DNA from: Stramenopiles sp. TOSAG23-6
Taxonomy: Eukaryota
DNA: 48,899 bases
Direction of reading: 5' to 3'
Assembly (NCBI GenBank): GCA_900128565.1
Contig: LT635925.1
Span: 1-48,899, forward strand
The notes beneath the pieces were generated by a model. It ran no database searches, had not been told where the DNA came from, and worked only from the letters and a program-made list of their open reading frames with translations. Shown here in pieces: positions 11,545-48,899 of this stretch. Each line of letters opens with the position of its first letter. Positions within the stretch are counted from its first letter, which is position 1. The translations under genes and the position numbers were made by a program.

Positions 11545-11904
11545 ATTTCCAATCCGTTATTCACGGGTATATTAATAATAATTGTAAATAATATATAATA
11601 CAAAGAGATTGTGCGTCAAATTCTTTTACACGGAGATCGAAAATTTAAATTTAATGCCTGTGTCACGTGTAACTGTTGGTTAAACTGTGCACTGCTATAT
11701 ATCATCTTTGCTAGCCCTAACCCTAGTACGTAATTAAATTTAATTGTCCTAATAATTTCGGTCCTAATATTTTCCTAATATTTCCGTTGCGGTCAAAAAG
11801 TCGTCAAAAAAATCGCTTCACGGTTTCTTGCCATCTTCTTCGCTGATGAAGTGTGTGAAAGAAGGTCCACACAATTATTTTACCTGTTGAATTTACCTTT
11901 CCCA

Positions 11905-15292: not shown

Positions 15293-15642
15293 ATTATTGT
15301 TATTTGACTTATTGTGATTTCTAGAGGGTACTATATATTTGGTGAATTTCGCACTTTCCCAAAATTATGTATACAATCAAACTAGAATATACTCTTAATA
15401 ATACTGCGTATTCTATGAGCTTTATATTTGCGCATGAGAGAGGACAGAGAGGCCAAGCGAATTGTCAATTGACCGAGTCACGGCCGACTTACAAAATTGA
15501 CAAAATTAAGGGTTAGGGTTAAATTTTTTATTATTTCGTGATTTTTTTCTTCCGCGATATCGAGATCTCAGAATCAGATCGTATCCATATATCGTCGTGC
15601 GCACAAACTCCACCAGAACAGTATTGCGATTTTCTAGTTACA

Positions 15643-17281
15643 ATGTCAGCATTATCACCTAGTAAATGCAAGGCATGCTCAGGTAAACATGTTGCTCATG
15701 TTTGTAGCCGTTCAACAAAGTATCGGCAAGATAATGGTGAATATGCCGGGAAAAGGCTTGCAAATAAGCGTCGAATGAATTCTGTAGGTCATGACGTAGA
15801 TAATATTGATCAGAAAGGGATAAAACGTCCACGAAAAGCATGTATGTATCCACGTGATAATGGAAGAGGTTCGCGGAGGACTTTTTTAAAATTAGCAAAT
15901 AGTTCAAAAAAAACGCCGAAGGACACTGTAGCTGATCTTCGCTCTGAATTATTGTCGAGAACTGTTGTTTACAACCCAGAAACAAAAATGCATTGCCGTG
16001 AGTGGGATACAACCGATGTTGTAAAGGGTGTAATTTCGGCCCTTCAAAAAAATGGTACACTGACTAGTTCACAAGTTGCATCAATAATTGGTGCCCCTGA
16101 AGGACACGTATGTTTTCATCTTGAATTTCAATTTTTTTTCTACCAAATTTCGTACCTAACGAATTTCAAGTGCAATATATTTTCCTAAAATACATGTTCA
16201 AGTTGTTTTAGATATTTTAGTGACAACTCCTTTAGCAAGTGAAGTTTTGGTTGGTACACGTGAACAAGTAAAAAAGTATACTGAAAATTTATCAAGAAGA
16301 GAAATACGGCGTCGTTTTAAAATGTTAGTAAAAGGTAATCCTGGTAGTTTGGCAGCCTTGGATGATAGAAAGAGCAAAAAAAATGAATCTAAAGGAAAAG
16401 TAATTGAATCCAAAGGAAAAGTAATTGAATCTAAAGTAGAACAAGTTGAATCTAAAGTAGAACAAGTTGAATCTAAAGTAGAACAAGTTGAATCTAAAGA
16501 AAAAGAAATTCAAAACCTGGTAATCATTGAAAGTATAGATAAGAAGTCTTCGTCAGTTACAAGTAATACTTGCAATACAAGTGATACGAATGAAAAGACC
16601 ACTACTCTTACTTCTAAGCCTAATGAAAGTGATGTGAATGAAAAAGCTGTTCAAGAATGCTCTCATCCGAATAGTCAAAAATTAGAAAACGAAAATGTTG
16701 TAGTAAAGACAAATATTTCTCCAACCAAAGTTACAGATTTGGAGAAGAAGGAGGATGATATAGGGCATACTTCATCTGTACCTCCTTCATCAATACATAA
16801 TAAGCAACATAATACTATTACGGCTTCTACTGCTTCACCATCCAAAACAACTACGCCTTTAGTAGCACCACCAGCAACAACACAGACAACATCCCAGACA
16901 ACATCTCAAACAGCTTCATTACAAGAAATACCAGCAACAACAACAACAACAACAACCATGAAAATACTAACAAAAAATTTCACTCAGGATATAAAACCAA
17001 CTGTTACACAAGATGGCCTGACTGTGACGTATATTTATAGAGACGGAAATCCGCTTCCATCAAGCATTCCATTAGGTAATATTGCCGATGCTATTAGATT
17101 AGAACGATTGCTCGTTCTTCGTAGCTCATCAAGAATCAAAATGTATAAAGCTGAAATGAAGAAACCTGTGAAAGAACGAAAGGTTCAAGATTTGTTGAAG
17201 AGGTATATTAAAAGTCATAAAGAACTGAATAGAAATGATTTCTATTCAGCAATTGCAGAAACCTTATTATCAGAGGAGTGA
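15643..17281 (+). CDS. Hypothetical protein with CxxC-x3-HxxHxC knuckle and HTH-like segment; exons 15643-16107 and 16196-17281
   Basis: Two ORFs join in frame when 16108-16195 is removed, giving LTSSQVASIIGAPEGHVQVVLDILV. Confidence 0.7.
16108..16195 (+). other. Non-canonical intron-like element I1 (GT...AT, 88 nt, phase 0)
   Basis: GTATGT start, TACCTAAC at 16153-16160, ends AAAATACAT|GT; removal restores the frame. Confidence 0.75.
16385..16500 (+). repeat. 21-nt coding tandem repeat (ESKGKVI / ESKVEQV, about 5.5 copies)
   Basis: Visible in DNA and protein. Confidence 0.9.
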
Positions 17282-17339
17282 GTAAAACATATAAAGTGTG
17301 TAATATAGTATAGTATAGATTCAAATTTATTTTAAATCA

Positions 17340-19556
17340 TCATAAATCAACTATTTTGTAGCATGCTTCATCCTCTTCAGACTCTTCAGAAGAAGTAGCA
17401 AGGAAATTATTCAGATTTTCTATAGATTCGGGTGTAGCAATTTGTATATCTCTCGCAGTCTCTGTTATACTATCTTTGTCTTTTTCTGTCATATCTTTGT
17501 TACTTTTATCAGTCTCGATTTCATTTTTGTTGTCTGTTTGTGGCATAACGTCTGTATTCTTTGCAGAGAACGTAGTATTGTCACTATCCGTCGCAGTAGC
17601 TACTAATGTCTTGGTGGTAGTATTTTTTGTACTATCTTTTCCAAATAAAACAGACGGGCTTGTCAAAGTATCTACAACATATGATGATTTAGATTTTCGA
17701 GAAGAAGATGAAATATTTTTCTCACTTGATACGCTACCTCTGGTTGTACCTTTTTTAGGTGTCATCCTTGCGAGAGGCCCACGGGATTTTAACTTTCTTT
17801 CTAATGCTTGAATATGAGAATTTTTTTCGCGTAATTCTTTATTCAAAATTTGAACATTTTCTTGTAAAAATCGAATTTCCTCACGTACTTTAGCATTTTG
17901 TTGTAAAAGTTGTTGCAATCGTTTAGCTAAAGCTTTCTTTACACCATCTTTATCATTTTGAGAATGTACACCACCATTGTTATTACTTAATGGAGAATCA
18001 AAATCGCTAAAAAGTGTTCTTGCTTTTGCAGCTGCTGCAATTGCACGTGCTTTAATACTACTGGAGGTTTTTGCAGATTTTGCACTTGTTATTGATTGCG
18101 TCAAGTTTGAATTTTTTAACTGGTTATCTGGAGACTGGAATGATGGAGTTTTTTCTGTAGAATTTGAAGATTCAAAAGTGATAGGCGAAGATGAATTTTT
18201 TGATACGGGTACTGCCATAGTTTCCCTATGCACATTCGCTGTCGACGTTGATTGGACCACATGCTTATATGTAGACTCTAATTGTCCATATTTAGTATGT
18301 AATTTCTGTAATTCTTTTTTGAGTGTTTTAATCAATGCTACTTCTCTTTTGCCTTTAACAACAGCATCATCTTTAACATCTTGAATATCAATTTTTAATT
18401 TCGCCATTTGCTCCGTTGATTCATTTAATTGAACTTCAAGCTCTTCTGCTTTTAAGCTTGCATTTATTCTACGTTTTTCTATCATTTCACATTTATTTTT
18501 TAAGTTTTGAATTTCTTCAGTCAAGATTTTGTTTTTTTCACTCAGATGATTTTTATCTGTTTCTGAAATTTCTAAAGATTCCTTCAACTGTGTAAACATT
18601 TGTCTTTCCTTATTTAATGTTTCCTGTATACTACAAATTTCGTCATTTTTTAATTGTATCGAATTTTCTGCTTTAATTAACGCAATCTTTGCCAGACTAG
18701 TTTTTTTTTGTGTTTCTTTTTCTGTGGCTTCCAATGCTTTCAAATCAATACGCAATTTACTATTCTCGCCCATGGCCTCCATTAGTGCGTCATCAAGCTG
18801 ACTACGTTGATCAGATTCGTTCAGTAACTGTGTTCGTAAGTGGCTGAGTTCCTTCTCCATTTTAGTATTTACAGCAACATTATCCTGAAGTTTCTTAATT
18901 GAGGATTTTGAGGATTGGGATTTGGTAGCCTGTAATTGCGTCTTTAACTTATCAATTGTTTCAGTAGATGTTGATACTTGAAGTTTTAACTCTTCTACTT
19001 CACTCATGGTTTTCTGTAGGGTAGCATCAGATTGAGAACGACTTATTTGTAAAACGTCAATCTCATCGAGTAAGTCTTCATTATGAATCTCTAAAGTTTT
19101 TAATTTTGTTTTTAACTCTGTCTCGTTAAAATCTTCAATCTGTTTTAATAAAGCATTTTTTTCCTTGGTCGCGGCAACTTTAGTTACACACAGCTCACCT
19201 TGTAATTTTTTAATGTCAGCGCGCAGTGTTTCCAATTCTGCCTTTGTCTTTAAAGTCTCATCACTTACGCTACCATTATTCACTGCTTCTAACGCCTTTT
19301 TCTTGGCATCTGCAATCTGTTCACGCATTATACTTTTGATCTGCTGAACTTGCAATTTAAGTTGCTCGTTTTCATCGGCAAGATTTCGCATCTGACGCTT
19401 CCTGGCGTCGTTTTCCTGCTTAGAGATTGTCGTCTTTTTGTTTGCGGAATTGCCACGTTTCAACCATCCCTGTAACCCTGCTTTGATGTCGGAAACACGC
19501 TGTTGAGCACTTCCAGCTGTAGCAGGCGAATTCGTCTTTGAGGGGTTTGACGACAT
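17340..19556 (-). CDS. Long coiled-coil protein, CCDC186/GRIPAP1-like C-terminal segment
   Basis: Extended heptads; ALAKRLQQLLQQNAKVREEIRFLQENVQILNKELREKNSHIQ resembles that family from memory; ATG at 19556. Confidence 0.6.
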   Translation of the reverse strand: MSSNPSKTNSPATAGSAQQRVSDIKAGLQGWLKRGNSANKKTTISKQENDARKRQMRNLADENEQLKLQVQQIKSIMREQIADAKKKALEAVNNGSVSDETLKTKAELETLRADIKKLQGELCVTKVAATKEKNALLKQIEDFNETELKTKLKTLEIHNEDLLDEIDVLQISRSQSDATLQKTMSEVEELKLQVSTSTETIDKLKTQLQATKSQSSKSSIKKLQDNVAVNTKMEKELSHLRTQLLNESDQRSQLDDALMEAMGENSKLRIDLKALEATEKETQKKTSLAKIALIKAENSIQLKNDEICSIQETLNKERQMFTQLKESLEISETDKNHLSEKNKILTEEIQNLKNKCEMIEKRRINASLKAEELEVQLNESTEQMAKLKIDIQDVKDDAVVKGKREVALIKTLKKELQKLHTKYGQLESTYKHVVQSTSTANVHRETMAVPVSKNSSSPITFESSNSTEKTPSFQSPDNQLKNSNLTQSITSAKSAKTSSSIKARAIAAAAKARTLFSDFDSPLSNNNGGVHSQNDKDGVKKALAKRLQQLLQQNAKVREEIRFLQENVQILNKELREKNSHIQALERKLKSRGPLARMTPKKGTTRGSVSSEKNISSSSRKSKSSYVVDTLTSPSVLFGKDSTKNTTTKTLVATATDSDNTTFSAKNTDVMPQTDNKNEIETDKSNKDMTEKDKDSITETARDIQIATPESIENLNNFLATSSEESEEDEACYKIVDL

Positions 19557-19999
19557 TGAAACAATTGAAAATAAGCGCCAATCAAAAAAAGGTAAAATGT
19601 CGCGCAATAATATCAATAAAAATATTATATTGAATCCAATAATATGTGTGAATGTGAGAAAGAAAAACATCAAAACAATATCAATAATATTTTGATGATG
19701 ATTTGCAATTTTTTGACACTTTGCTGAACCTTTTCAAAACTTATATTTCGTGTTGTTCAGTGCTGCGTCACCATCTTGGGGGAATCGTCTGCCGATTATA
19801 AGGACTTAGAAGCTATAATGTCATGTGTAATGCTGCAGAATACATACATTAATCACAACGGTCGATAGCATGTGATACAACATACTAGATTTTTTCATCT
19901 GTTTGGAAAAAAATTCTAAAATATAACATAATTTATAAAATGATGAAAAATATCAAAACCAACAGAAAATAAATGTGGTCAGCACTACAACCGTATTTT

Positions 20000-20449
20000 C
20001 TATCGACGCAAAGTTTTACGAATCAGACAATATACATTAGAATCTAATTCAATATTAATAAGATGCCTCTGTTCGCCTTTAATACACATCAGCAAGCCAC
20101 CGAATGAAACATATGCAGCAACACGGTGTTCTTTCTCGTGCTCGTATTTGAAAACTTTACCGTACATTCCGTACTCATATTTATCCAAAAGCGTAGGTTT
20201 ACCAGATTGATCAAACTCACCCGAATCTGGCTTTCCGTCTAAAGATAATGTTCTCGCAAGCGCAAAACTAATCTTTTCACCTTCATAGATTGGATATGCG
20301 TCAGTATTAATGTCAATGACAAGGTCGGTTTCATAAGCAACACCTTTACACTGAATTCGGTCAACTTTGTCGAACTTTTTACCATCTGGATTCTTTACAC
20401 GAACATCAAAAAGATCCTCAAAGAGAATAGAACTAGATCTATCACTCAT
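20000..20449 (-). CDS. RPB8: RNA polymerases I/II/III subunit RPABC3
   Basis: LFEDLFDV...DGKKFDKVDRI, YEYGMYGKVFK, YVSFGGLLM. Confidence 0.96.
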   Translation of the reverse strand: MSDRSSSILFEDLFDVRVKNPDGKKFDKVDRIQCKGVAYETDLVIDINTDAYPIYEGEKISFALARTLSLDGKPDSGEFDQSGKPTLLDKYEYGMYGKVFKYEHEKEHRVAAYVSFGGLLMCIKGEQRHLINIELDSNVYCLIRKTLRR

Positions 20450-20747
20450 TATACAATTACTACTATCCAGTCGTTAGATATCTAATTGCTATCGCGAGAG
20501 AATTTCACAAGAAGTGCTTGAATATAGTTATGCGAGTCGTTGATTTGAGTAGAGAGAAGCCAGTTCACTATAAAAAAAACGGATGACGGAACAGGTTTGT
20601 TCTTTCGCGATTTGCTACCACGCTCTTCAGAGTCCTTCTTAAACCTGTGCAATTTGCAAAAGAAAAATATTATTCTGAAAATACGCGAAATATTTATACG
20701 ACAACCCAACTCAAACAAAGCTCCATACGAATCGAGTATCAATATCA

Positions 20748-22025
20748 ATGGGTAGGATGCTGAAATTTATGCCACTTAGGTCTTTAAAAATGCAGCTTTA
20801 TCGGATGCGTGGTCGTCCAATAAAATACTTTGGCAATTTCGTTCACGACGGTATAAAATCTTCCCATAGACAATTTACAAATGTTGTATTAACTGAGTCT
20901 TTTTCTTCAAATGAGTCTTCTACAGTAAGCGATTTAAATTTGGTTTCAGAATTTGATACGTACCAGCCTTCATTATTAGATGAGCTGCACCTCCGTGTGA
21001 AGAATAGGCCACTGAAACACATTATTCTTCCTGAAGGAAATGATAAACGAGTTCAAGAAGCAGCTTATGAAGCCGTCACTCAAGGTTTAGCAAAAGTCAC
21101 TCTGTTCGTTGAATCGCCTCAAGAAGCCGCTCTTATTCCGCATGTGAAAGGGGTAAATGTAATTGTCCCCAATGATCATTCGGATATGAAACGTTTAGCC
21201 TCTGAATTTTATGCTGAACGTCTGAAGAAAAAATCGAATATTCTTGTTAAAGATACAGTTGACCCTCATTACTTTGCTAATTTGTTGGTGAAGGACGGCC
21301 AAGCTGATGGTGTAGTTGCTGGTGCTCTCTTAACTACTGGAGATGTTGTCCGTTCCGCCATTCAATGTATTGGGCCAGCAACTGGTAACTCGGTGATTAG
21401 TAGCTTCTTTATAATAGAATTTCCAGAGAATCATCCGAGGGCAGGCGCAGTTCTATTTGCAGATTGCGGAATAAACGCCGAACCAACAGCTGAACAACTT
21501 GCAGAAATCACTTTACAAACGGCATCCAGTGCGAATCAATTATTATCATCTACAGCATTACCACCGCGTGTGTCTATGTTATCATTTTCAACACATGGAA
21601 GTTCAGCTCATAAAAATGCAAAAAAAACACGAAATGCTTACGAAAAAGTATTACTGAAAAGGACTGAATTAATTTCCTCATACGAAAGTAGTAATACACA
21701 AAATACTGGAAAAACTCCATTTGGTACAGTTAATGAATTAAAAGAATTAATTATTGATGGTGAGCTTCAGTTTGATGCTGCTGTTGTACCAGATATTGCA
21801 AAGAAAAAGGCTCCTCAATCAGCAATACAAGGAAATACAAATGTTTTTGTATTTCCTAATTTAGACGCAGGTAACATTGCATACAAAATGGCTGAGCGTT
21901 TTGCCGGAGCGAAAGCGATAGGCCCTATCTTACAAGGTTTAAAAAAACCTTCAAATGATCTTTCTAGAGGTTGTGATATTTCAGATATTATTCATTCTAT
22001 TGTTATCACATCCCTACAAAGTTAA
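20748..22025 (+). CDS. pta: Phosphate acetyltransferase with N-terminal targeting-like extension
   Basis: IILPEGND, FADCGIN, MLSFSTHGS, DGELQFDAA, FVFPNLDAGNIAYK, GPILQGL, NDLSRGC. Confidence 0.94.
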   Translation: MGRMLKFMPLRSLKMQLYRMRGRPIKYFGNFVHDGIKSSHRQFTNVVLTESFSSNESSTVSDLNLVSEFDTYQPSLLDELHLRVKNRPLKHIILPEGNDKRVQEAAYEAVTQGLAKVTLFVESPQEAALIPHVKGVNVIVPNDHSDMKRLASEFYAERLKKKSNILVKDTVDPHYFANLLVKDGQADGVVAGALLTTGDVVRSAIQCIGPATGNSVISSFFIIEFPENHPRAGAVLFADCGINAEPTAEQLAEITLQTASSANQLLSSTALPPRVSMLSFSTHGSSAHKNAKKTRNAYEKVLLKRTELISSYESSNTQNTGKTPFGTVNELKELIIDGELQFDAAVVPDIAKKKAPQSAIQGNTNVFVFPNLDAGNIAYKMAERFAGAKAIGPILQGLKKPSNDLSRGCDISDIIHSIVITSLQS

Positions 22026-22146
22026 AACACATGTAAATGACTTCAAAAAGAAAAAAAAGTAATAAAAAAAAGTTTTTTTTACTTTGTCTAATTTATGAGA
22101 GTAAAAACATATTTCAAATTGTAATGGTAAGTACTACATACTGTAG

Positions 22147-24741
22147 TTATTCATTTGGATTTTTTCCAATAAAAATTGGTCCAAGGACTAAGCATGTCGT
22201 CGTCATTGTAGTAATAATTACGTGTAATGCTGGACCAGCTGTATCCTTAAATGGGTCGCCAACGGTGTCGCCAGTCACGGATGCCATATGAGCATTGCTT
22301 CCTTTCCCACCATGAGCTCCAGCTTCAATATATTTTTTTGCATTATCCCAAGCACCACCACTATTATCTAAGAACATTGCCATCATAAGCCCAGTGAGGG
22401 TTTCAAACATCATCATTCCACACAAAACTTCAACACCTAAGTCGTATTGACCAGTATATTCTCCGATAAATCTAAATAGTAGACCAATACAAATTGGTCC
22501 ACCTAAAGCAAAACATGCAGGCTTAATCATTTTCTTCAATGCTTCACCTGTGACTATAGCAACACACGCTTGATAATTTGGCTTTTGTTCATATTGAAGA
22601 ATTCCCGGCATTTCGTCAAGTTGTCGTCTAACTTCTTCGACAACCTTTTTTGCCGTTTGACCCACTGCATCAAGTGATAAGCCTACAAAAAGAAATATAC
22701 TCATTATTCCGAGTAACCCACCTACTAAAACTTCAATTTTACCTATATTAACATCATAAAAAGGTCTCCCAATAAATTCACTCATTTCATCTAAAAAGGC
22801 ACGAAATAATACAAAACATGCAAGTGCACTTCCTCCAACAGCATATCCTTTCGTTGCCGCTTTAGTAATGTTTCCAACCGCATCAAGTTCATCTGTAATT
22901 GCGCGGACTGTCTCTGGTTGCCCAGACATTTCAACAATGCCTCCAGCATTATCAGCAATTGGACCAAAATTATTCATACTCAAAACAAAAACAGCAGTAC
23001 ACAAAGTTCCCATCGTAGCACACGCTGTCCCGTACAACCCTGCAGCAACAGTGTTTGGTAAACCACTATTTTTACCTAAGTAATACGATACTAAAATAGA
23101 GATACTAAGTACAATTGTAGGTACAAAAGTTGATTCCATCCCAACAGAGATTCCAGATATAACATTTGTACCATGTCCTGTTGTTGATGCAGCAGCTATT
23201 TTTTGTACAGGTCCATGCGTATAATCAGTGTAATACTGTGTGGATAGAAATAGACAAAATGAGGATAAAATTCCAACTAAACCACATAGAAAGTAGTTAT
23301 ACCATGCAGAAGGTGCAATGGGGTCACTTAATAAAGCATAACAAGAAATAGCATATGTACAGATCGCACATATAATAGATATAATATAAGCATTCTGCAT
23401 AATTTTTAGTGGACTACCACGTGACGTTGAATTAACACACATAATACCAACAATACTTACAACAAGGTCAGTTCCATGAATAACTACAGGGAAAAACACG
23501 AAATGTTCAGGATTTGTCACACCTGACTTTGCCGCAAGTTCACCACCAAGAATCATTGCGCCTATAATTTCCCCACTAATTGACTCAAACACATCCGCCA
23601 TACTACCAGCACAATCACCCACATTATCTCCCACTAAATCTGCAATGACAGCAGGATTGCGTGGGTCATCTTCGGGAATTCTGTTTTCTATTTTACCAAC
23701 CAAATCTGCGCCAACGTCAGCTGCTTTTGTGTATATTCCACCTCCCAACTGCATAAATAAACCTACAAATGATGCGCCAAAACTATACCCAGCGATAAAT
23801 AAAGGAATTTTTTTTGAGTCCACGCCACCAAAATATGAAAAATTTAAGTAGGCTGCAATGTATAAAAGTGAAACTCCAAGAATGCACATTCCTGCTGACA
23901 ATATACCAGATACTGCTCCACCACGGAATGCTAATACTAAAGCTTCACGAGTCAGGCCACATGTATTGTGAAAAAAAATATCAACAAAAAAAAATTGTTA
24001 GGTATGAAATTTTGTACAAAAAAATAAATTTGAAGTTAGGGTGAGGGTTGATAATGAAAGCGTACGTGATGCTGCGCTGGCTACTCTGACATTAGCACGT
24101 ACTGAAAACCATACTCCCACATACCCTGCCAATGCAGAGCAAAACGAACCCAATAAAAATGAAAAACTTGTAAATAAGGCTAACGACAGTTTATAATTCT
24201 CCAATTCAGGAGAAATAGCTGGCCTATTTAAATATAGTAGACATAATAAACATGATGTTATTAAAGAAGATATAAATACGGCATAATACTGGACCTTCAG
24301 GAATCCATCCGCGCCTTCTTTTATAGTCGATGCGATCTCTTGCATTTCTACCGTTCCGCAGTCCGCTTTTAATATGCTCTCTGAAAGGTGTATTGCAACA
24401 AAAAATGAACCAAGAACGATTAATAGTGTCATCATCATATATACACCACCTATTTCACTTCCTAGAAATGCTACAGCTAATATAGCGAGTACATTTAGAA
24501 CCATGACAAAGGTTACTAAATTTCCTACCCATTTTGGGACATCTTGTGATGAAAACCTCTGAGACGAAGAGACAACCCTGGGAACTCCAAGCGATTTAGC
24601 AAGTCCCATAGGAAGACCAAAACGTGAGGATATCCCTCTATTTTTTCGTTGCGAGTCATCATCACGTGGCGACGAGGGTATACCTGCTGAACCTCCTTCA
24701 AGACTAGTATATTGATGACCGCCTCTTCGTGTAGGTAACAT
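22147..24741 (-). CDS. Membrane H+-translocating pyrophosphatase, K+-independent (AVP2-like); exons 24741-24066 and 23960-22147
   Basis: GGGIYTKAADVGADLVGK, EDDPRNPAVIADLVGDNVGD, GNITK (Lys type), GDTVGDPFKDTAGP; the halves join as RVASAASRGLTREALVLAFRGG. Confidence 0.95.
23961..24065 (-). other. Non-canonical intron-like element I2 (GT...AT, 105 nt, phase 1)
   Basis: GTACGC start, TACCTAAC at 24004-23997, ends CACAATACAT|GT; contains an in-frame TAA, so it must be removed. Confidence 0.8.
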
Positions 24742-25005
24742 TCTCTACAATTAGATAACCTATAATTCCTATAATTTCTGGAAGCAACAACAACAACAAG
24801 CACCGAAGTCCTTTGAATTCACATTCAAAAATACACGAAATCCTAAGAAAAAATCGGAACTCACAATTTAATTGATTGGAGTCAAATTGTGACTGTCATA
24901 ATATTAAAGCTGCATTCGCATAAATTGTTCTTCTGCAGGTACTACTGTAACCAAATTCTAAAAGTTTTGCTTCATACTCTGCTAGGAAAACCATTCTAGA
25001 TAAGA

Positions 25006-27866
25006 ATGGCTGGATCAGTGTAAGTTTTGTTCATTTGTATTATTTTTCTACACAAACTTGGTACTTTATTGGGTACATTTTTAGATAATATAGTTATTCT
25101 CAATGGAGAGTTTATCTCTGTTGAAAACTTGTTTATTTTTTATTTTTTGCCTAGTTGTCCTTAGAACTATTACACATTACATTACGTAAAGCCTTTTAAT
25201 TTCATAAAGTTATACTTGACGTATCCATTTTTCACTGTAGTACTTGCGATTTTGCAATCCTTGCGGGTTCGGACAGCGACGTCGAAGAAAGAATTCCTCG
25301 GAAGTCCAAGTCACAGCGTAAACGAAATAAAAAAAATAAAATGTCAAACTCTTTACAAACAACGAGTACACATGTACAAGATACTACATCGGTTGAAGTA
25401 AGTCATAATCCGGAAGATGCTAGTATCATACGTCAAGTGTGTCGTGGAGGTTTCTCAAAAAAGGAAATCGTAAATGCCTTGCAAAAGCTTCGAGCTCTCG
25501 ACTTTGTGATTGATGCTCGAAACGTTTTACAATACCTCAAAGAGGCAGATTTAAAAGAAGTATCCGGAGAATTATATGATCCATGCACTTCTGATTATTT
25601 TGCAATGTATGGAAAGAAAACCCCTACCCCTACTCAAAATAATTCTCCTTTCTACCAAAATTCATTCACAAATATACACTTGCCAAGGTCGTCCACTCCA
25701 GTTTTTGGTGGCAAAAATCAAACTAAAAATACTTCGCCAACAACGTCAACCATAATTAATGTTGAATCTAAATCTATGAACAATGAAACCGTCATTGAGA
25801 ATCAAAAGCGAACTCTTGAAAAAGTGTCTGATCTCGAAAATTTAGAAGAAATTCTTGATGCGTTGTCCTCCTATTTTAAAACATTTCCAAGTATGTTTTC
25901 AAAATTGAATGTAAAATATTTTTCAAGTTCGAATTTATTTTTTTAAAAAATTTTTCGTAGTTAATTTTGTACCTAACAAAACCTAACGAAACCTAACAAA
26001 ACAGTTGAATGTAAAATATTGTTTCACAATACATGTATGTTTATTTTTTTCAATTTGGAATTTTTTTTTCGTACAAAATTTCGTACCTAACAAATATATA
26101 TATATATATATATACTTTTTCATAATACAAGTATTATTCCAGTATTTTTTGAAACTTCTGCCTTACAAAAAATACTGATGAATCTTTACACGAAATCATA
26201 CAAACCAAAACGAATTGACAAAAAACTAAAATTATTCTTTGAAAGACTTTTTTTTCAGAAATTGGAAAATCAGAATTTGAACGCAAGTGAAAAAGAAAGA
26301 AAAATATTTCCTCAAAATGTTGTTGTCTGTGTTATCCGTGATATTTTTAATGTAGTATCCAATTGGAAACATTCTGAGAATTCTGACTTACCACAATTAA
26401 GTGAGATTATTGAATGGATCTCAAGATGTATAAAAGAAAGTTGTGATATATTCAAAACTTCAACTAAAGCATTTTTAGTATGTACAGAAATGCGTAAGAA
26501 AATTGAGGAGACTCGAGAAAAAGCAGCAAAATTATTAACTGTACCATTGGGTATTACTAATACTTTGAATACAACTAAAACGATGTTTGCTCTGCGTGAT
26601 ATTCAGTATAATCTTGCGCGTTTGTATAAGCAAAAACAATGTATTTTTCAAATTCAAAATTCGTCAAGTGCGAAATTTGGTACCAATTTAATTTCAAATA
26701 CACCAAGTACTATGCTGACTGAATTGGTAGTAGACACCGCAACTGATGATCCCAAAACTGCATCACTTCAAAATGACTCTTTATTAACAGTTTTAAATGA
26801 AATGTCAAAAATAACGGATGAAGATTTCAAGATAAATGAAGAATATGAAAAAATACAATCTGAAATGATGAAAGCTCATGAAAAGAGTTGTACTGAAATA
26901 AATTGTAGAAAAGATGAAAAAATGAATCGAATAAAGACAATAAAAGAACAAAGAAGAAAATTATTGGATGAATTGGCAATTGTTGATGAAAGTCTCAGAA
27001 ATGAAGAAGAGGGGTATACAATGCTACTGAAAGAAAAGACAGATTTAGAAAGCAAACGTTTGGAGATTTTGAATTCAAAACTGGGACAATATGAAAAAAC
27101 TGTACAAATGGTGAAAACGAATAAAAAGTGTTTGGCAATGAAAAATCTTTTGATTTCTTTACGTACGAAATGTTCTGACAGTAGCCATATTTATCAAAAT
27201 AAATGTAGACAAACCTGTTTTGGATATGGAACGGATAAATATGAGGAAATGGTTCAAAAATCAAATCTTGAACATTATAATGCAGTGTTTGCGTATTTAA
27301 TGACAGAAATTAAATGTATTGATTACTTAAAGAATCGTATTAAAAACAGTACAACCGAGGAAAACTTTTGCAATAAAGAAATAAATTACTACCAGAATAT
27401 GGGAAGTATGAATAAAACCCTTCAAAATCTTATAGAAAAACGTACGAAATGTTGCCAAATTAAAAATGAAGATGTACAAGCTTCAGAAGCAATCTTGAGT
27501 TTGTGCCACGAAATATTTAAAGACGTTTGTTCATCAAGTAAAATATTGAAGAAAAAAAATAATGATAATGATATTCATAGTATTGATAATGATGAAATTG
27601 AAGCTGTACGTCGTCTAGTGATACCATTCAGACAACTTGGTATAGGATTGTCGAATGATTGGATACCTGGTGCAATAATTGAACCTATTTCTATATCTAA
27701 AGACTCATCAAATAATTTTGAAGACAATATTGAAGAAAAAAATCCAATATCGAACAAAATTATTGAGACGTCAAGCTCAGTGAAGAAACCACTACAAAAT
27801 GATTGTAATAATGACACGTCGCTTTCGAAGCATCTTACGTGGATTAGAACAACAAAATTAAAATAA
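25006..27866 (+). CDS. Hypothetical coiled-coil protein, possible UBA-like segment; exons 25006-25019, 25241-25890, 26131-27866
   Basis: All joins are in frame: MAGSVTCDFAILAGSDSD...KTFPSIIPVFFETSALQKILMNLY... Confidence 0.7.
25020..25240 (+). other. Canonical GT-AG intron (221 nt, phase 2)
   Basis: GTAAGT donor, CTTGAC branch candidate at 25215-25220, pyrimidine tract, CTGTAG acceptor; links ATG 25006 in frame to the downstream ORF. Confidence 0.75.
25891..26034 (+). other. Non-canonical intron-like element I4a (GT...AT, 144 nt)
   Basis: GTATGT start, three ACCTAAC copies at 25971, 25981 and 25991, ends CACAATACAT|GT. Confidence 0.7.
26035..26130 (+). other. Non-canonical intron-like element I4b (GT...AA, 96 nt), abutting I4a
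   Basis: GTATGT start, TACCTAAC at 26084-26091, (TA)n tract, ends CATAATACAA|GT. Confidence 0.7.
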
Positions 27867-28030
27867 ATATGTTGTTTTTCAAGTATCTTTCTTTGGGTTT
27901 GAGAGAACATCAAAATATAAATTAAAATTAATAAGGATTGAAAAATGTTGTTTCACGATTACTAATTAAAAAAGAATAAAAAGTTTATCTTGAATAAAAA
28001 TTGATATTTTTATAGAAATGACATTAAACC

Positions 28031-29071
28031 CTAACTGAGTGCCGTTTGTAATGCTTGTTGTCCTCGTTTCGCCATTACACTCACTTCTCCTTTTCGTGTT
28101 TTATCAATAAAACCAATTTTTTGCGTGATTGAAGAATCTGGAACATATTTCCATGCGTCACTATATATAGGTTTATGTTTATTATGATTATTTGTTTTTT
28201 TTGGCTTTGGAAGTTCCTCAATATTGTAATGATCAAATCGTAAAGAACTATTAACAAGACTCTCCCCGGGGGATAAAATGTCGAGTTTATCTTTTTGTGA
28301 TGGATGTTCTTTCATCATAGACTCGAAGTGGCCGTACGGTGTTGCTTCAATAGCACCACTTGCCCAAAGACGTGGGTCTAATACCAATCTTTGCCTGGAT
28401 TTTGCTATACTTACTTGTTTATTAGAAGTGGCAGTATCTAATGTTTCTTCCGCGAGTCGTTGAAGAACCCGGCGAGTTGGATTATTTAAATTATTTGTAT
28501 TTACTCTTGGAAACATAATTGGCGTTTGTGGTGCAAAACCTGAAGGCGTTTCGGAATCTAAAAACATACCCCCTGTAGCTCGATTTGATAACTTTAGAAA
28601 GTCAGTAAATTGTCGAAATTTCATTTCTTTTAATGTTTTTGAATCCATCGACTCTAAGGAATTGGCCACACCATTCTGTATTTGGGAAAACACTTCATCA
28701 TGCCAATCAAGATACAACTTTGATTTCTTTTGTTTGTCCGTTTGTTGTTGCATTGTTAGAAAACGATCAATCTCTTCAACGAATTTCCCTCCTTTTTTCA
28801 ATTTTACCATAGAATCAGCAAATTTCTTTTTTCCAATCTCTCTTTGGAGTTGTTTTTTTTCCTGGAAACGGTAGTCACTTTCTTTTTCTTTTAAAGATTG
28901 CATCTTGATCCATTGTGCGTATCGAAGTTTTGCTCGAACTAATTCTTTTTCTTTTGGAGTGAGCTTCTTTCTTGGCTTTAGAAGTTTGTTTGTTTGCGTT
29001 GGAGATGATAGACCATTGGTCAAACCAGCAAAAAGCTCTTTGTTATAGACTTTACAGGTATCGGAGGACAT
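28031..29071 (-). CDS. Hypothetical protein, FAM228-like (possibly ciliary)
   Basis: 346-aa ORF; FVEEIDRFL...KKSKLYLDWHDEVFSQIQ resembles FAM228 from memory. Confidence 0.5.
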   Translation of the reverse strand: MSSDTCKVYNKELFAGLTNGLSSPTQTNKLLKPRKKLTPKEKELVRAKLRYAQWIKMQSLKEKESDYRFQEKKQLQREIGKKKFADSMVKLKKGGKFVEEIDRFLTMQQQTDKQKKSKLYLDWHDEVFSQIQNGVANSLESMDSKTLKEMKFRQFTDFLKLSNRATGGMFLDSETPSGFAPQTPIMFPRVNTNNLNNPTRRVLQRLAEETLDTATSNKQVSIAKSRQRLVLDPRLWASGAIEATPYGHFESMMKEHPSQKDKLDILSPGESLVNSSLRFDHYNIEELPKPKKTNNHNKHKPIYSDAWKYVPDSSITQKIGFIDKTRKGEVSVMAKRGQQALQTALS

Positions 29072-29393
29072 ATTGAGTACTACGTACTATTAATACTAAC
29101 CTTATACCTACTATATATTCAAGAATATATCTTATCGCTATTTAGGACCGAAAAAAATGTAACTGCCGCCACGACTACGTAGTACTACGGAAGGACTTCT
29201 ACTATTATACGTTGTAGTGGCATTCAGTACGTATTAATATCTACTATTGTAGTAGTATTAGTCTTACTTTAACATTAGACAAAACTAGAAGAGCAACATT
29301 ACAATTGAGTTTGGTGGTACATCATAGGAATACAAAGGTGCCATAAATATAGAGTATACATTTATTACAAATATTACAAAAGATACCACAATA

Positions 29394-32300
29394 ATGAGGT
29401 CAATTCGTCCTGAGAGAAAGCACTTCAAGAGACAAAATAGCAATAATATTGTGTTTCAGGATGACTTTGCAGAAGCCAATAAAAAGTCAAACAAACATGC
29501 AGTTGAAGAGAAAACAAACATTTCTGTGTCAAAAATACAAAATCAATCCAACGATTTTCGACATAGAGCAAATAATCATCGTCAAGTAGATGAAACTCTA
29601 CAAAATCACACACATCATTCAAAGTATCATAGTCACAGGTACGCTACCCAAAATGAAGACTTTTCTTCAGCCACACAAAAGCACAAACGTGGTCAATATG
29701 ACTACGTCAATCAAAAGCAATCACAATTACAATCCTCAATATTCGATGATCCTTCGGAAGAACCATCAATTCAGCATAGGTATCAAAGAAATTGGACATC
29801 GAAAAAGAATCCGAATAAACTAAAAAAAAAGGGAAAATATACTGAGTATCCTATCTACTCTAACCCTAACCTTTCTCCCAACAGACCCTCGCAACGTCGA
29901 TATGAGAATTCTCTCTCAGATTCTTTTAGTGACAATATTGAAGATGATTATAGATATGAGCAATCCCGTTCTTATAGTAGTGAACGATCTCAAGGTGGAC
30001 GTCATTTGAAAAACCCGAATTGGAGAAGTTTTAAAAACCATGACACTCCACAAAAACAGAGACGCAGACGAGATGTAGGTATTCAAAAATATCGTGAGGG
30101 TAATAAAAATGGTGAGAGGCATATTCAATGGAAAAATAATCCAAAATATCAAAATAATCCAAAACAACAAAATAATCAAATATATCAAAAAAATCAAAAA
30201 TATCAACATAGTAATCAAAAATATCAACATAATAATAATGGGAAAAGGTCTCAATATAGTGAAGATTGGCGCAAAGATCTTGAACGGCTTGATAATTATG
30301 AAACACAAGATACTGCAGTAGAAAGTCTAAATGTTTATATTACACGAAATATCATAAATTTTTCACAATTTCGAATATTTTTGTCTGCATCAGAGAAAAT
30401 TTTGAAAAAGTTTCGTTTATCCTCCGCAAAGGAATTAATGGGGAATTTATTAACAAATGTAACAAAGCGATATAGACTACACTGTTGTAAGAGTAGACGT
30501 CAAATTATGCGAGTCATTTTGCGCTTTATAGAAGATAATGATATTAAAGTTCGTCTATCTGGTGCTCGACTTTTACAATCTCTAGTTGGTCGTGTATTTC
30601 CGAAATTAAATGAAACGAGTTCTGGCGGTCGAGGAGCAGCAGCTATGCAACCCAATATTAACCCCAAGGCTCAATTTACGGAAATTATTCTCTCCCCCAT
30701 TTTTGAAATATTGAAGAGTAAGAGTTTTGAATCTCAGCGACAAGGTGCAGCATTATGTCTTTCTTATCTTGTAGCCCAGCAAAAAGCCTCAGCTGTAGAT
30801 TTATTGGCGTCTTCTCTTGGCTTCATAGCAACAAAACTTCAGCAATGTATCTGGACTGAGCGTGGTCGAGCAGGGTCGTTCCTCTGTGATGCAATTTCCA
30901 ATTTAGTAAATTCGGTTGGACCTCGAACTAGTGCGCCACATATTGAGCGGTTTGTCGAATGTATGTTACATTGTTTGCATGATAAAGATACAGCATGGCA
31001 AATGTGTACATCTGGAATTCATTCATTATCCGTTTTAGGTACTTTAGGTAGGCATTCAGGAACAAATCTAAAATACCAAAATAAAATATTACCAGAAAGA
31101 AAATTAAATGAAATAAATTTGAAATTGGAAGATTTGATGCACTATCACGAAGTGAATAAAGTGCGCCAAGCTGCTCAAGATGCACTTGACAAAATTAATT
31201 CGAATCATTCAAAACAAGAATCAAGTGTTTCAAATAAACATCAAAATGTTGAGAATGATCAATATAATCCATTACTTTGGTACAAAAAAAAATATAATAT
31301 AATGAATAAAACAGACGCACCTAAAACTGTTGTTTTACAAAGTAGCAATATAGGGAAATATTATATTGGGCAAAGTGTATCTGGTTTAGGTGAACAAAAT
31401 GAAATTAGTGGAATTATAATTAGAAAAACAAATAATTCTGGTAAAATTTCAAATTCAAATACTGTAGAACCTGGGATTATAACAATACAAGTAGTGACAA
31501 GTGAAAATAAATCTGCTAAATATAATAATCATGATATGATTGATATAAATAATGATAACAATGATGAACAAGATAGTGATTCGTATTACATTCCCATTTC
31601 ACCAAGGAATCGACAGAAACGTAGAAATATCAGAAATATTAATAAAAATGAAAATACAAAACTTAGTGCTGCGTATCATCCACACTCTAATCCCCAAAAT
31701 TATTCAAGTTATAATGAATCAAATGAAAATGATGAGATGGAAATGGATTTTAAAATAAATGAAAAAAAGAAACATTTCGATGCACAAAATAAACACAAAC
31801 AAAAAAAACGAAATACTCACAAAAATTTACACGGAAAACAAAGTAGTAAGCCCAGTATATCACAACAAATACAACCTCAGCAAATGAAACTTCTTTCAAA
31901 ACACATGTCTGACTTAATGATGCAAAATAATGAGTTAAAGAGTGAAATAATAGAAATTCGTAAATCCATAGAACAACATCAAATGGAGCCAAAGTATAAA
32001 GTATATGAAAAGCAAGAGCAAAGCAGTACAAATAAAAAAATCATAATTCCAAATTTTGAAAAGAAAAATGAAAATGTTCAATCAGATAATACTTATAGGT
32101 CCAAAGATAACAATGATTTATATAGTTCCAAAGACGACAATAATTTACCCAACAATTTGAATATGATTTCGAAAGTAAAGTATGAGAATGAAGTGAGATC
32201 GGATGATATAGAAATTAAAAATGATACAANACATAAAAAAANGTCATAGAAANCAANGAAAACAAAGAAAACAAAAATATGAAAAACATGAAAAAAAGAA

Positions 32301-33450
32301 AAAAAAAAAGAAGAGGCAAGGACAAGAAGAACAGGAACAAAAAAATGATTTAGTGACAGCGACATTGGATGCAAATACGACACCATTTACAAACGTACTA
32401 ACTTCGCTTCAACCAAAATTAACTGTAGTACCAACACTACAAACTGAATTAATAAAAAGTAGAGAACGACAACAAAACATGCACTTAAGTCACATTAAGG
32501 AAACAAACCATCTAGGAATGATACCCGGTTCACCCAAAAAATATTTTGAAGTGAATGAAACTACATCTAATGACAACCTTAGTGACAAGAATCATGTTAT
32601 ACAAAATAATATTGATAGTCATACATACGCAAATGAAGCTTTTTTGAACAGTTTTTCGAGTACATTTAGTAAAAATCACAAAATGTCAACTGTTCCCGGC
32701 TCACCTATAAGAGGTGGGGGTTTATCAGCGAGTCGTCAAATTAGATCAAGTTTGCTTCATAATAATAACACAATGAATCGTCATTTATTTGATGTTACAC
32801 TAACCTCATCGTTATTGCATGATGATATACCGGTTGAAAATACTGTTTCATTGTCGGAGGGTAGGGTGGATAGTACCCAGCAAATTCGAAATTCATTAGG
32901 TGCAAAATCAGATTCATTATCGGATGGGCCAAGTGCCCCCGATCTGACTGAGACTCACCAAAGTAAAAACCTCGCAATATCTGGTACAGATATAGCTTCA
33001 GAAGTAAAAATTAAAAATGATTCACTCGCGCAGACTCATGAAGATTTTCGAACAGCTTTATCATTAAACCCTAACCCTACAGAAATAGCAGATACAACAG
33101 AAACAAACCATGGCACGAATACAAGTAAATCACGAAATCCTATAATAGCCACTGAAGCTGATTTATTAGAGTTATTACTCTCAGAAACACCATCATCACT
33201 ATCTACCATGCCCCAAAATACAACCAATATATTAATGCAGGTTTGTGCAAAAAGTGTTTTAGCTGATGAACATCTTGATGCAGTGTTACCATGGTTGAGG
33301 GAAGGTGCTTTAGTAGGTGTACATCTCGATGAGGACACTAAATCAACTGTGCTTTCAGCATTGCATCATCTCAGTTACTCAAGTAATCAAGACGGTATTC
33401 TTGCAGCTGAGCTAATACAACGAGAAGCTTTTCAAACAAACACGTTGTAA
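29394..33450 (+). CDS. Large HEAT-repeat protein, TORTIFOLIA1/SPIRAL2-like; frame broken at an N-containing low-quality stretch (about 32230-32260)
   Basis: QGAALCLSYLV, AWQ, EVNKVRQAAQDAL HEAT block, coiled coil, and C-terminal DLLELLL...HLDAVLPWLREG...VLSALHHL; the two ORFs overlap at the Ns. Confidence 0.55.
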
Positions 33451-33878: not shown

Positions 33879-36800
33879 ATGCATAGTTCGATAACATCAA
33901 TGAAAGCTCATTCTCTCTTGGGTATTCCTGATGAAGAAGAATACACTATTGTCCAAACATCAGAGGAGAACGTTGCAAAAGTTCCCCAACCAGAAACATC
34001 TCGTCAACATACACTGCTACGCCGACACGACACGCCGCCACTCATTAAACTAGCAAACATTTCTGACCCCAATGGATTTACTGCAGTAATTCATGATCCA
34101 CTAGATAATCCTACAACATTCAATAGATCTCTGAGCTATACATCATCGTATACTCTTCCAACAGCACAAATTTCATCGGTAGAATTTTCAGAATTCGAAG
34201 GATACATTGCAGAGATTGAAAAGCTTCATTATAAGTTAGTTGAAAACCACAAAACGAATGGTGGCACGATTGTTGAAGAATCAGCATCAGAAGAAAAAAT
34301 ACGTCAACTTTTACGAGATGTAGAAAACGTTGTACCTAAATTATTTTTCAGCAAACAATTTGCCTTTTCCGATGCATCTACTTTTAAAACAGTGACAGAG
34401 TCGCATGTGAGAGAAAATAGCAACCTTTCAAACTTAGGTGCGATGAATTCTAATCGTAACTATGATAAAGGTGGACAGGTACAAGATGAAAATCTGTTTA
34501 ATGAAAACAATCAGCACAAAGAATGTATCCAGAAACTTTCGCAATATTTAGAATTTGTCGAGTTTGTCATGCTGACGATAGTTTCTTCTAGGTCTCAGTC
34601 ATTTTTTGGTGCTCTCGAAGGTCTACAACTTTTTAAATTACAAATATCTTCTACATGTTATAAAATTAGATCTTTACGTGGACTCTTGCGGAGACTTAAA
34701 GGTGCCTTAGTTACAGGTTCATTGAAAATTATTCAACTTCGTCGACGTCGAGCTAATGTTTGTTTTCATATCAAATTCTGTACCTATTTTGTTTTGTGGT
34801 TTTGTGGTTTTGTGCCAAATTCTGTACCTAACAAATTTCAAACTAAAACATATTTTTCAATTACATGTGAAAAAAATCCAAGAAAAACTTAATTTTGTGT
34901 GTGGTGCAATGCAGACTCAGGAGTTAGTACAATTATTACTAGAAAGTGAAAATTATAGTGGTGCCCTAGATGTCATTGATGAAGTAAGAAATACTTTAAA
35001 AAGAGAAATTTGCGGTTTACATGCCTTGCAATTTCTTGAAAATAAGTTAACTCAATTTGTCAATTTAACGTCTAATACAATGACAAGTCAGTTTCTACAT
35101 TTGGCAATGCATCTTGGTTCAAATAGCAGCGATAATACAAATATTGAGGATGAGTCATCTACAGGTATTTTGAACAATGACAAAAATAATATAAATACAA
35201 GAATTGCAAAAATGTCCACTTCCAAAGATAGAGCTCGTTTTTTCCGATTACTTCAAGGTCTCCTTCAAGTAGGGAAATTACGTACAGTTTTGCGAGAATA
35301 TCGAAATCGTGTTGCAGAAATGGCTACTTCTGTTGTAAAAACCGCCGTACAAGCTGCATTAGGGACCCATAATAGCACAGTTACTATGAATGAAAAGGAC
35401 TCTCTGCAATCATCTCCGAATTCATCCAACTTAAGTACAAAAAATACTACAGAAAAACGTCCATCTATCAGTGTTGTCCGCCAACTACAAATGTTGGACG
35501 AACATTCATTTTTAGAACTTTTCGATATTGTTCGTGAACAACTTGGAATAGTCATTATTCGTGCTGTTGCTGTACATGAAATATTACAGAATTGTCTTGA
35601 AAAATGTCAAAATGACGTCGAAAGACAAATTTCAGAAAAAAATATAAATAAACCCAATAATAATCTCCATGAGAAGAGTAATGTCGATATGAATAGAAAT
35701 AATAGTAATACTAAAACGAGTGAAATTTTCCAAGTAAAACTAAAAGATACAAAAGATACAAAAGATACAAAGGAAACAAAACCAAAATTGAATGAAAGTG
35801 TCACTGACATTTCGACTTCTCAGTTAATCACAAAAATCACAAATTCTGGAAATATTGTTAATCCTAAAATTTTAAAATTTCGTGTAGATAAAAAAACATC
35901 ACTGCGTGAAAGTCGGGAATCTCTAATACATTTTTGGGTATTAGCTCAACGGCATATCGGCCGAATGCTCGAAGTACGAGCTGAGCTTCACAAATCTTCT
36001 GCATTAACACAGATGAATCAACTATCGCTGAAGTGCACTTCTTTTATTCATCAATATGCTGTTCTTTGTGGGAGTGATGGAGCAGTACTGCTTAATGTAT
36101 TAAAGTCTCAATTACAAGATCAATTTGAAATGATGCACATGACACATATACAACATATGATGCATATTCTTGCTACTGAAAGTTGGGAATCTTACCAAGT
36201 GTCAAAATTGTTACAAAAATTGTTAGACTTTGTCATTGAAATTTGTAATGAAAAAAAATTGGAAATGGAAGATTCAACGAATAAATTGTACAATCTTACA
36301 AATACTCAAAATACACAAAGAATAACACTTATTGAAATGATAGAATATGTTGAACACTTTGAAGTATTTAGTACAAAAACAACTGTATTACCTACGACAT
36401 ATAGTAGTACAAAACAACACGAAAAGAAGAATCGCACAATACCAAAATTATCAAAATTATTTGCTAAATTTCATGGACAAAAACAGAAGATGTGTTCCTT
36501 AAAAAGCATTGACTATTGTGTACCAAAAGCTACAATATATGTCGTATATATTTTAACTACTTGTATTCAAACTTGTCGTCAATGTCCCCATTTATTATCA
36601 CAAGTAGTACAAAAAATTGTACTAACTATTCGGAAATATAATTTCCGTTCATCTCAACTTATTTTAGGTGGTAAAAGTGTCGAGTCACGAGACTCGCCGA
36701 TAAAAAAAGTGACTGCGAGGCATTTATCGTTGGTTGCACGAAGTCTCTCATTTTTGGTCGTTTTCGTGTCGGAAATTAAAAAATATTTAGGTATTACATT

Positions 36801-43104: not shown

Positions 43105-43384
43105 TGTTACGTTTTTTACTTATCAAGTAGAGAATACAAATACGCTTTGTTCTCAAGATTATGGACGGTATATATTACCAGTCGGTACAGGAACTCGTCT
43201 CTCGCACTGAATATTTTTTAAACCCTAACCCTAGTACCTAGTTATTTGAACGTTGAAATCGTCTAAAAAATCAAATTCACGCGGGTGTAGCTATTTGTAT
43301 GAGTAGACGAATGCGTCAATATTGTTAAATAAAGTAAAGAGAATACATGGTAATAAGGTTTTAAAGAGATGAATTTATTTATTT

Positions 43385-48811: not shown

Positions 48812-48899
48812 GTATGTTTTATTCTTTTTCAAATCCGAATTTGTTTTCGTACGAAATTTTGTACCTAACGATTTTTTTTTGAAATATTTTTCCAAAATA
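48812..48899 (+). other. Intron-like element I5 of the same family, truncated by the window end
   Basis: GTATGT start, GTACGAAATTTTGTACCTAAC, ends ...TCCAAAATA at the edge. Confidence 0.75.

Follow-up and report, generated by a model that had tools for sequence, protein, structure and literature searches.

Can two short introns of one family lie head to tail within a gene, with not a single exon base between them, and can both be removed although neither ends in AG? This question is raised by contig LT635925.1 of Stramenopiles sp. TOSAG23-6 (assembly GCA_900128565.1), of which positions 1 to 48,899, referred to below as the window, were analyzed. Two units of intron-like sequence, I4a and I4b, follow each other there inside a gene of the forward strand, and their signals recur at other sites of the window. 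Judging from the nucleotide sequence, we give about an even chance to the reading that I4a and I4b are each a complete and autonomous member of a family of short introns with a non-AG cut, and that the messenger RNA (mRNA) of the gene would lack positions 25891–26130.

Analysis of the junction between the two units reveals that a 3′ and a 5′ signal are juxtaposed at 26034|26035 (...ATACAT|GTATGT), with zero exon bases between them, so that the junction reads AT|GT. Copies of the branch box ACCTAAC lie at 25971, 25981 and 25991 in I4a, at a spacing of 10 nucleotides (nt), and at 26085 in I4b (box 26085–26091, branch A at 26090). The distance from the branch A to the end of I4a is 58, 48 and 38 nt for the three boxes, and the corresponding distance in I4b is 40 nt; since the other members of the family show 36, 37, 35 and 40 nt, only the third box of I4a (branch A at 25996) fits the family. 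The composite of both units measures 240 nt, as compared with 88–109 nt for single members; the coordinates of all features are collected in Table 1. A first-pass annotation of this DNA had stated that the second GTATGT begins at the base following the end of the first unit, that each unit has its own donor, branch motif and end motif, and that only the last of three ACCTAAC copies spaced by 10 nt stands at the family distance, all of which is borne out in the window. Its further claim that direct CAAGTAT repeats flank the pair holds as far as their presence at both ends goes (25888–25894 and 26128–26134), but the motif has no significance alone, since it occurs 12 times in the window where 8.5 occurrences are expected, and its CA..GT part follows from the family consensus. 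The short motifs CAAGTAT, AATACATG and GTATGTTT all occur at chance frequency in the window when taken alone. Between the branch box and the end of I4b there is also an (AT)10 microsatellite (26094–26114), a change in whose length would alter the distance from branch to end.

The host gene shows that both units must go, because only their joint removal opens its reading frame. With nothing removed, with only I4a removed or with only I4b removed, translation stops after 201 amino acids (aa). Removal of the 240 nt from 25891 to 26130 yields an open frame of 761 aa that reads ...FPSIIPVFF... across the joint, the restoration that the first-pass annotation had announced. If the intron were ended at the first AG past the I4b branch (26130–26131), the frame would shift and a stop would follow after 198 aa. 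Contigs from RNA libraries lie on exon 2 at 26375–26525, 26624–26774 and 27232–27418, and on exon 1 as given in Table 1. The gene product belongs to no Pfam family, no homologues were found at similar lengths or among 1.84 billion representatives, and its first 150 residues have no homologue among shorter proteins.

Table 1. Coordinates of the tandem pair, its host gene and the other members of the intron family in the window (numbering of the 48,899-nt stretch)
Feature	Positions	Strand	Remarks
I4a, first family unit	25891–26034	+	144 nt; GTATGT start 25891–25896; end motif ...CACAATACAT (26025–26034)
I4b, second family unit	26035–26130	+	96 nt; GTATGT start 26035–26040; end motif ...CATAATACAA
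19-nt direct repeat within I4a	25905–25923	+	second copy 26005–26023, 95% identical
Tandem array in I4a	25971–26002	+	3.2 copies of a 10-nt unit (ACCTAACAAA); spans the three ACCTAAC boxes
Host gene, exon 1	25341–25890	+	first ATG 25341, 550 nt to junction; open frame 25200–25946; RNA-library contigs 25242–25392, 25503–25760
Host gene, exon 2 (240-nt reading)	26131–27866	+	stop codon 27864–27866; open frame 26091–27866
CAG ending a conventional 252-nt GT-AG intron (25891–26142)	26140–26142	+	TTCCAG acceptor, 52 nt past the I4b branch A
Family member, unnamed gene	16108–16195	+	88 nt
Family member, H+-pyrophosphatase gene	23961–24065	-	105 nt; start GTACGC; exact removal restores colinearity with homologues
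Family member, gene with Vps54 domain	34758–34866	+	109 nt; start GTTTGT
Family member, otubain-like gene	48812–48899	+	cut by the window end 31 nt past branch A

The family to which the two units belong comprises six copies in five genes of these 48.9 kilobases (kb) and a seventh copy in a metagenome contig, L037. Its members share alignment blocks (GTATGTTTTCA, TTTCGTAC..AAATTTCGTACCTAAC, the latter also given as TTTCGTAC..TTTCGTACCTAAC, and TTTTTCAnAATACAT) that reach well beyond the donor and the branch box. The donor is GT with a G at +5 in all seven members, five of them with the exact GTATGT, and all seven contain ACCTAAC. From the branch A to the end there are 36, 37, 38, 40, 35 and 40 nt in the six complete members (40 nt in L037). 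These end in ...ACAT, except for I4b with ...ACAA; the terminal dinucleotide is accordingly AT in five and AA in one, none being AG, and the next base is G in 6/6 units. The orientation of the units matches that of the host gene at each of the five sites in the window. A profile of six units, I4a and I4b being among those from which it was built, recovers the six copies of the window and nothing else at E ≤ 8.5e-16, I4a and I4b included; the next match (E 2.5e-4) falls in low-complexity coding sequence. In a second profile only the four other members were used, without I4a, I4b and the copy cut by the window end: it recovers I4b at E 3.2e-8 with an envelope of exactly 26035–26130, and the cut copy at E 1.2e-10.

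A scan of metagenome contigs for the family returned 54 loci, of which one (L037) is a true member and 53 are chance matches, and a scan of viral contigs gave no match to the family profile at any of 36 loci. Most of these 36 viral loci (L055–L090) share one span of 43 nt, which looks like a conserved phage sequence that fits the search pattern by chance. Single contigs of two RNA-library runs jump between copies (joints 16138>25951 and 16160>26040), a weak sign that more copies of the family exist elsewhere. Each member also has an internal direct repeat of its own (16120–16170, 34776–34832, 26065–26091 and 48850–48869), namely a 9-mer GAATTTCAA, a 15-mer CAAATTCTGTACCTA and TTTYGTAC, present twice ahead of the branch box; the units seem to be prone to slippage.

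Exact removal of the units joins long open frames at all five complete sites (195/300, 226/300, 230/300, 296/300 and 166/47 aa), these counts ending at the edge of the flank that was read, which extends over at most ~300 aa at the window sites and is shorter for L037. By our own arithmetic, five in-frame fits would arise by chance with a probability of about (1/3)^5. A more precise test of the 3′ boundary is offered by the H+-pyrophosphatase gene. Its exon 1 aligns to chain 8b37_A through residue 126 with one residue to spare, the split codon adds one more, and residue 133 of 8b37_A is matched by the fifth residue of exon 2, leaving no gap at the family boundary. Of 119 homologues compared, 58 align across the family boundary without any indel, 57 differ by one residue and 2 have larger gaps there; the remaining two homologues do not cover the site, so that 115 of 117 agree within one residue. 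If the intron were ended at the nearest in-frame AG (+18 nt), gaps of six residues in 58 homologues and of five residues in 56 would result. A strict pair of motifs was caught in 31 of the 119 homologues, always with a spacing of 30, which is that of the family boundary, as against 24 for the AG reading; the other 88 missed the strict motif expression and were left out of this spacing test. At the member starting at 16108, no AG in frame with the family donor is present within 80 nt downstream. On this comparison of predicted proteins, the intron of the pyrophosphatase gene has a non-AG boundary, and a non-AG end for the whole family is supported by this one strong comparative test together with the frame counts.

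A public gene model, P0001, whose protein is the nearest one in the database, covers a near-identical pyrophosphatase locus (window 22150–24744, minus strand; 3 mismatches and 108 gap positions with respect to the window). It translates part of the family intron, skips several stretches of open frame and forces other GT-AG pairs, and its motif spacing is 38 as compared with 30 in the homologues. As the model reads into the intron, existing annotation has not recognized the family, and predicted proteomes of such organisms may contain systematic errors at family sites. The conserved core of the same gene (22184–22740) is stacked with RNA-run contigs of many other organisms (summed depth 333–387, two runs), and loose contig ends at 22317–22365 and 22923–22968 mark the limits of the likeness to this core.

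How would such units be removed? The yeast-like GTATGT donor together with a CTAAC-type branch box leads us to infer removal by the spliceosome. The 3′ cut would fall 35–40 nt past the branch A; a T-rich run and ...AATACA(T/A) would precede it, and a G would come next. Its position would be determined by this distance together with the AATACA(T/A) motif. The mature mRNA would then lack all 240 nt. Because every signal is present in each unit, several paths could lead to this one mRNA. I4a could be removed first, which would re-create the exon junction CCAA|GTATGT and amount to recursive splicing at a zero-length exon; I4b could be removed first; or the donor of I4a could be paired with the branch of I4b in a single step. 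Sequential removal with the upstream unit first would probably be the commonest path, and is ranked first because each unit has the size of the family and the 240-nt pair does not.

Several observations weigh against this reading. Support for the non-AG boundary comes from a single conserved gene and from frame counts, and the cut can slide by 1–2 bases with an unchanged product: GT..AT and TA..TG fit all members and AT..GT fits some of them (the pyrophosphatase member would read AC..GT), although no slid reading is GT-AG. I4b ends in A where five other complete members end in T, and its end may therefore be impaired. I4a is matched only weakly by the profile of the four other members (E 2.4e-3, envelope 25905–26034) and is outscored by a spurious low-complexity match at 26646–26686 (E 1.7e-4), a weakness due to its lengthening by a 20-nt expansion of ACCTAAC and by the internal direct repeat. 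Four RNA-library runs over 15500–32200 contain no contig that bridges any family intron and list none of the joints 25890|26131, 25890|26035, 26034|26131 and 25890|26143, it being understood that two of them, polyadenylated (polyA) runs, have almost no cover on the bins holding the units, that the two others have a high summed depth, and that lack of cover is not evidence. The search for a conserved RNA fold yielded none, but only a mini-helix of four pairs, GUAC/GUAC, with no covariation, which leaves a special mechanism unsupported; folds of single units are no better than those of shuffles (z -1.75 to +0.81), and a mechanism by pairing of the ends, of the Euglena type, was rejected on these grounds. 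Finally, removal of 252 nt (25891–26142) as a GT-AG intron also keeps the frame, with a product of 757 aa reading ...TFPIFFE..., and since the host gene is without homologues the products containing FPSIIPVFF (240 nt) and FPIFF (252 nt) are indistinguishable by comparison.

The 252-nt alternative would be a conventional intron with a diverged tandem duplication inside it, the family end motif being no splice site at this locus. It combines the GTATGT donor with a TTCCAG acceptor 52 nt after the branch box, it follows the GT-AG rule of nearly all eukaryotes, and in its favour I4b is without the final T of the family. However, one site in three would have a nearby in-frame AG by chance, and an earlier, frame-shifting AG (26130–26131) stands between the branch and the CAG. 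The same rule applied to the pyrophosphatase gene gives a protein 5–6 residues short with respect to 114 of 116 site-covering homologues, and it finds no in-frame AG at all for the member at 16108 within the 80 nt mentioned above. We favour 240 nt because the family rule holds elsewhere, because the end motif of I4b, at the family distance of 40 nt from the branch, is intact except for its last base, and also because the out-of-frame AG precedes the in-frame CAG; the 252-nt intron is distinctly unlikely. The intact state of the inner signals (GTATGT at 26035, three exact ACCTAAC, and CACAATACAT at 26025–26034) speaks against another alternative, which we regard as rather unlikely, namely that the pair is one intron with a single lariat from the donor at 25891 to 26090 and a cut at 26130, in which an old duplication or insertion has left the inner end motif, the inner donor and the three boxes behind as unused relics. 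Also against it, the third ACCTAAC retains the 38-nt family distance to 26034, and the composite of 240 nt exceeds the 88–109 nt of single members. On the other hand, the mRNA would be identical, so nothing in the DNA forbids a single lariat, and removal as two introns would require two spliceosomes to sit on abutting sites. Very short exons tend to be skipped, which counts in the same direction, and the inner signals need no selection, since the divergence between the two units is like that of other pairs of members. We regard it as very improbable that the units are DNA elements (small transposons or internally eliminated sequences) excised precisely from the DNA in an expressing nucleus, for the yeast-type donor and the CTAAC box, which keeps a fixed distance to the end, are signals of splicing and not of transposons. 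This alternative would explain dispersed and similar copies, ends other than AG, weakly inverted ends (GTATGTTTT vs. AAAATACAT read backwards), and a G or GT after the element, like a short duplicated target. But there is no consistent target duplication, L037 being followed by GG, no transposase is found among the genes of the window, and the units always have the orientation of the host gene.

The reading of I4a and I4b as two members of a non-AG intron family can be compared with known systems. With respect to the two classes of spliceosomal introns, the family has the GTATGT-type donor and the CTAAC/TACTAAC-type branch box of yeast-like U2-type introns and lacks their 3′ AG. Introns of intron-poor protists and yeasts (Giardia, Trichomonas, Saccharomyces) are few and have a GTATGT-type donor, a near-invariant CTAAC box, a fixed distance from branch to end, and AG ends. 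The present family resembles these in the low number of introns per gene and in donor, box and fixed distance; unlike them, 0/6 complete members end in AG. Minor-type (U12-type) introns have the 5′ consensus RTATCCTT, with C at +5, and a branch box TCCTTAAC located ~10–15 nt ahead of the 3′ end. The family departs from this type because its +5 base is G (+5/+6 being GT or GC, never CC, in 7/7 members) and its branch lies 35–40 nt from the end; ACCTAAC is moreover one T short of TCCTTAAC. A likeness to the minor type exists in the GT-AT ends, in a 3′ site at a set distance from the branch, and in CCTAAC, which resembles TCCTTAAC. In one survey GT-AT, a rare pair, accounted for 7 of 66 non-canonical cases among U12-type introns; it can splice productively there, and the 3′ site of these introns depends on how far it lies from a strongly conserved branch box and not on AG. 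GT-AT was also present in one conserved U2-type case (PMC1557818). Scans of the window for Rfam families and for tRNA gave no match.

Introners, or introner-like elements, are described from Micromonas, Aureococcus, fungi and dinoflagellates (PMC9860276, PMC12130899). The family shares with them the occurrence of numerous short, similar copies in unrelated genes, each copy forming an intron and always oriented like its gene. In Amoebophrya, repeated introns of this kind are reported to have non-GT-AG ends in some cases, with inverted repeats of 8–20 nt, direct repeats of 3–5 nt and no fixed terminal dinucleotides (PMC7789003); the present family differs by its strict GTATGT start and its branch box. 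With regard to mobility, the analysis gives no consistent target duplication, weakly inverted ends and one related locus (1/54 metagenome, 0/36 viral), and in comparison with introners neither insertion polymorphism nor clear terminal inverted repeats nor target duplication are shown for this family. The shared blocks may reflect the splicing signals of a genome with few introns and not a recent spread.

With regard to the arrangement of the pair, Drosophila ratchet points are AG|GT sites within very long introns that are removed piecewise (10.1101/006163, PMC8605326). At 26034|26035, as at a ratchet point, a 3′ site abuts a 5′ site, the first splice would re-create a donor, and the exon between them has zero length; unlike a ratchet point, the junction is AT|GT, the pieces are of ~100 nt, both are full copies of one family, and the arrangement is here read from DNA alone. 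Fungal stwintrons are single intervening sequences composed of two introns that are removed in consecutive reactions, and in Hypoxylaceae there are sequence-similar 'sister' copies (PMC9024468, PMC8469720, PMC6616335). The order of removal in a stwintron is forced, since one of the signals of the outer intron is split by the inner one, whereas start, branch box and end motif of both I4a and I4b are whole beforehand; with all signals uninterrupted, the pair is not a stwintron. The literature searched contains no account of a marine protist with a family of GT..AT introns, and the available text of a report on single-cell genomes of uncultured marine stramenopiles contains 0 occurrences of 'splice' (PMC5778133).

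How did the two units come to abut? If six units were placed at random in 48.9 kb, an exact head-to-tail abutment would have a chance of ~3 in 10,000 (own arithmetic). Because this is so unlikely, either a local tandem duplication or an insertion at the junction would have to be assumed. In the first case the unit start GTAT equals the start of exon 2, GTAT, which provides microhomology, and the two further internal duplications in I4a suggest that the stretch is prone to duplication. In the second case ACAT|GT resembles the sites of other members (CAC|GT, AAT|GT, CAT|GG). The lenient pairwise identity of I4a and I4b is 84%, within the 71–88% found over all pairs, and the seven units form a star-like tree without a starred fork. 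These sequences do not discriminate between re-insertion and local tandem duplication, and would fit an old version of either. Of the inference drawn in the first-pass annotation, the part concerning two complete units of one family stands, but the insertion of a second copy at the junction of the first is not established by the observed identity and tree.

The AG at the 3′ end is among the most constant rules of nuclear splicing. If the reading given here is true, a whole family, and possibly all of the few introns, ending in AT or AA behind a textbook donor and branch would constitute a natural experiment on the second step of splicing, and the tandem pair would be a ready-made test of the recognition of units one by one and of the tolerance of zero-length exons outside animals. 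A further-reaching version, which we consider doubtful, is that the spliceosome of this lineage ignores AG, measures ~35–40 nt from the CCUAAC branch and cuts behind AAUACA(U/A), and that the introns are a mobile, introner-like family that settles at CAY|GT-like sites, stacks, and is removed serially via a zero-length exon. Were this the case, the ACAT|GT 3′ junction would re-create a CAY|GT-like site, and copies could therefore stack head to tail.

The window as a whole is AT-rich (28–40% G+C in 2-kb steps) and gene-dense, and contains ordinary nuclear genes (Rpb8, prefoldin, a cGMP-type kinase, Vps54, otubain, H+-pyrophosphatase and phosphate acetyltransferase). Public sequencing runs in which the stretch recurs come from seawater, and among them are DNA runs that contain 44–80% of it. 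Four N bases at 32230–32257 break the long open frame 29328–33450, probably reflecting an assembly gap inside a gene. The forward strand encodes at 11779–14628 an aconitase with the domains Aconitase_B_N and Aconitase_2_N, which belongs to the bacterial AcnB type, an uncommon one among eukaryotes. Telomere-like repeats (GGGTTAGGGTTT / AAACCCTAA) are present at 43225–43250 of the window (minus-strand view) and at 1775–1835 of L037; they are intergenic, lie near gene starts and may represent a promoter box.

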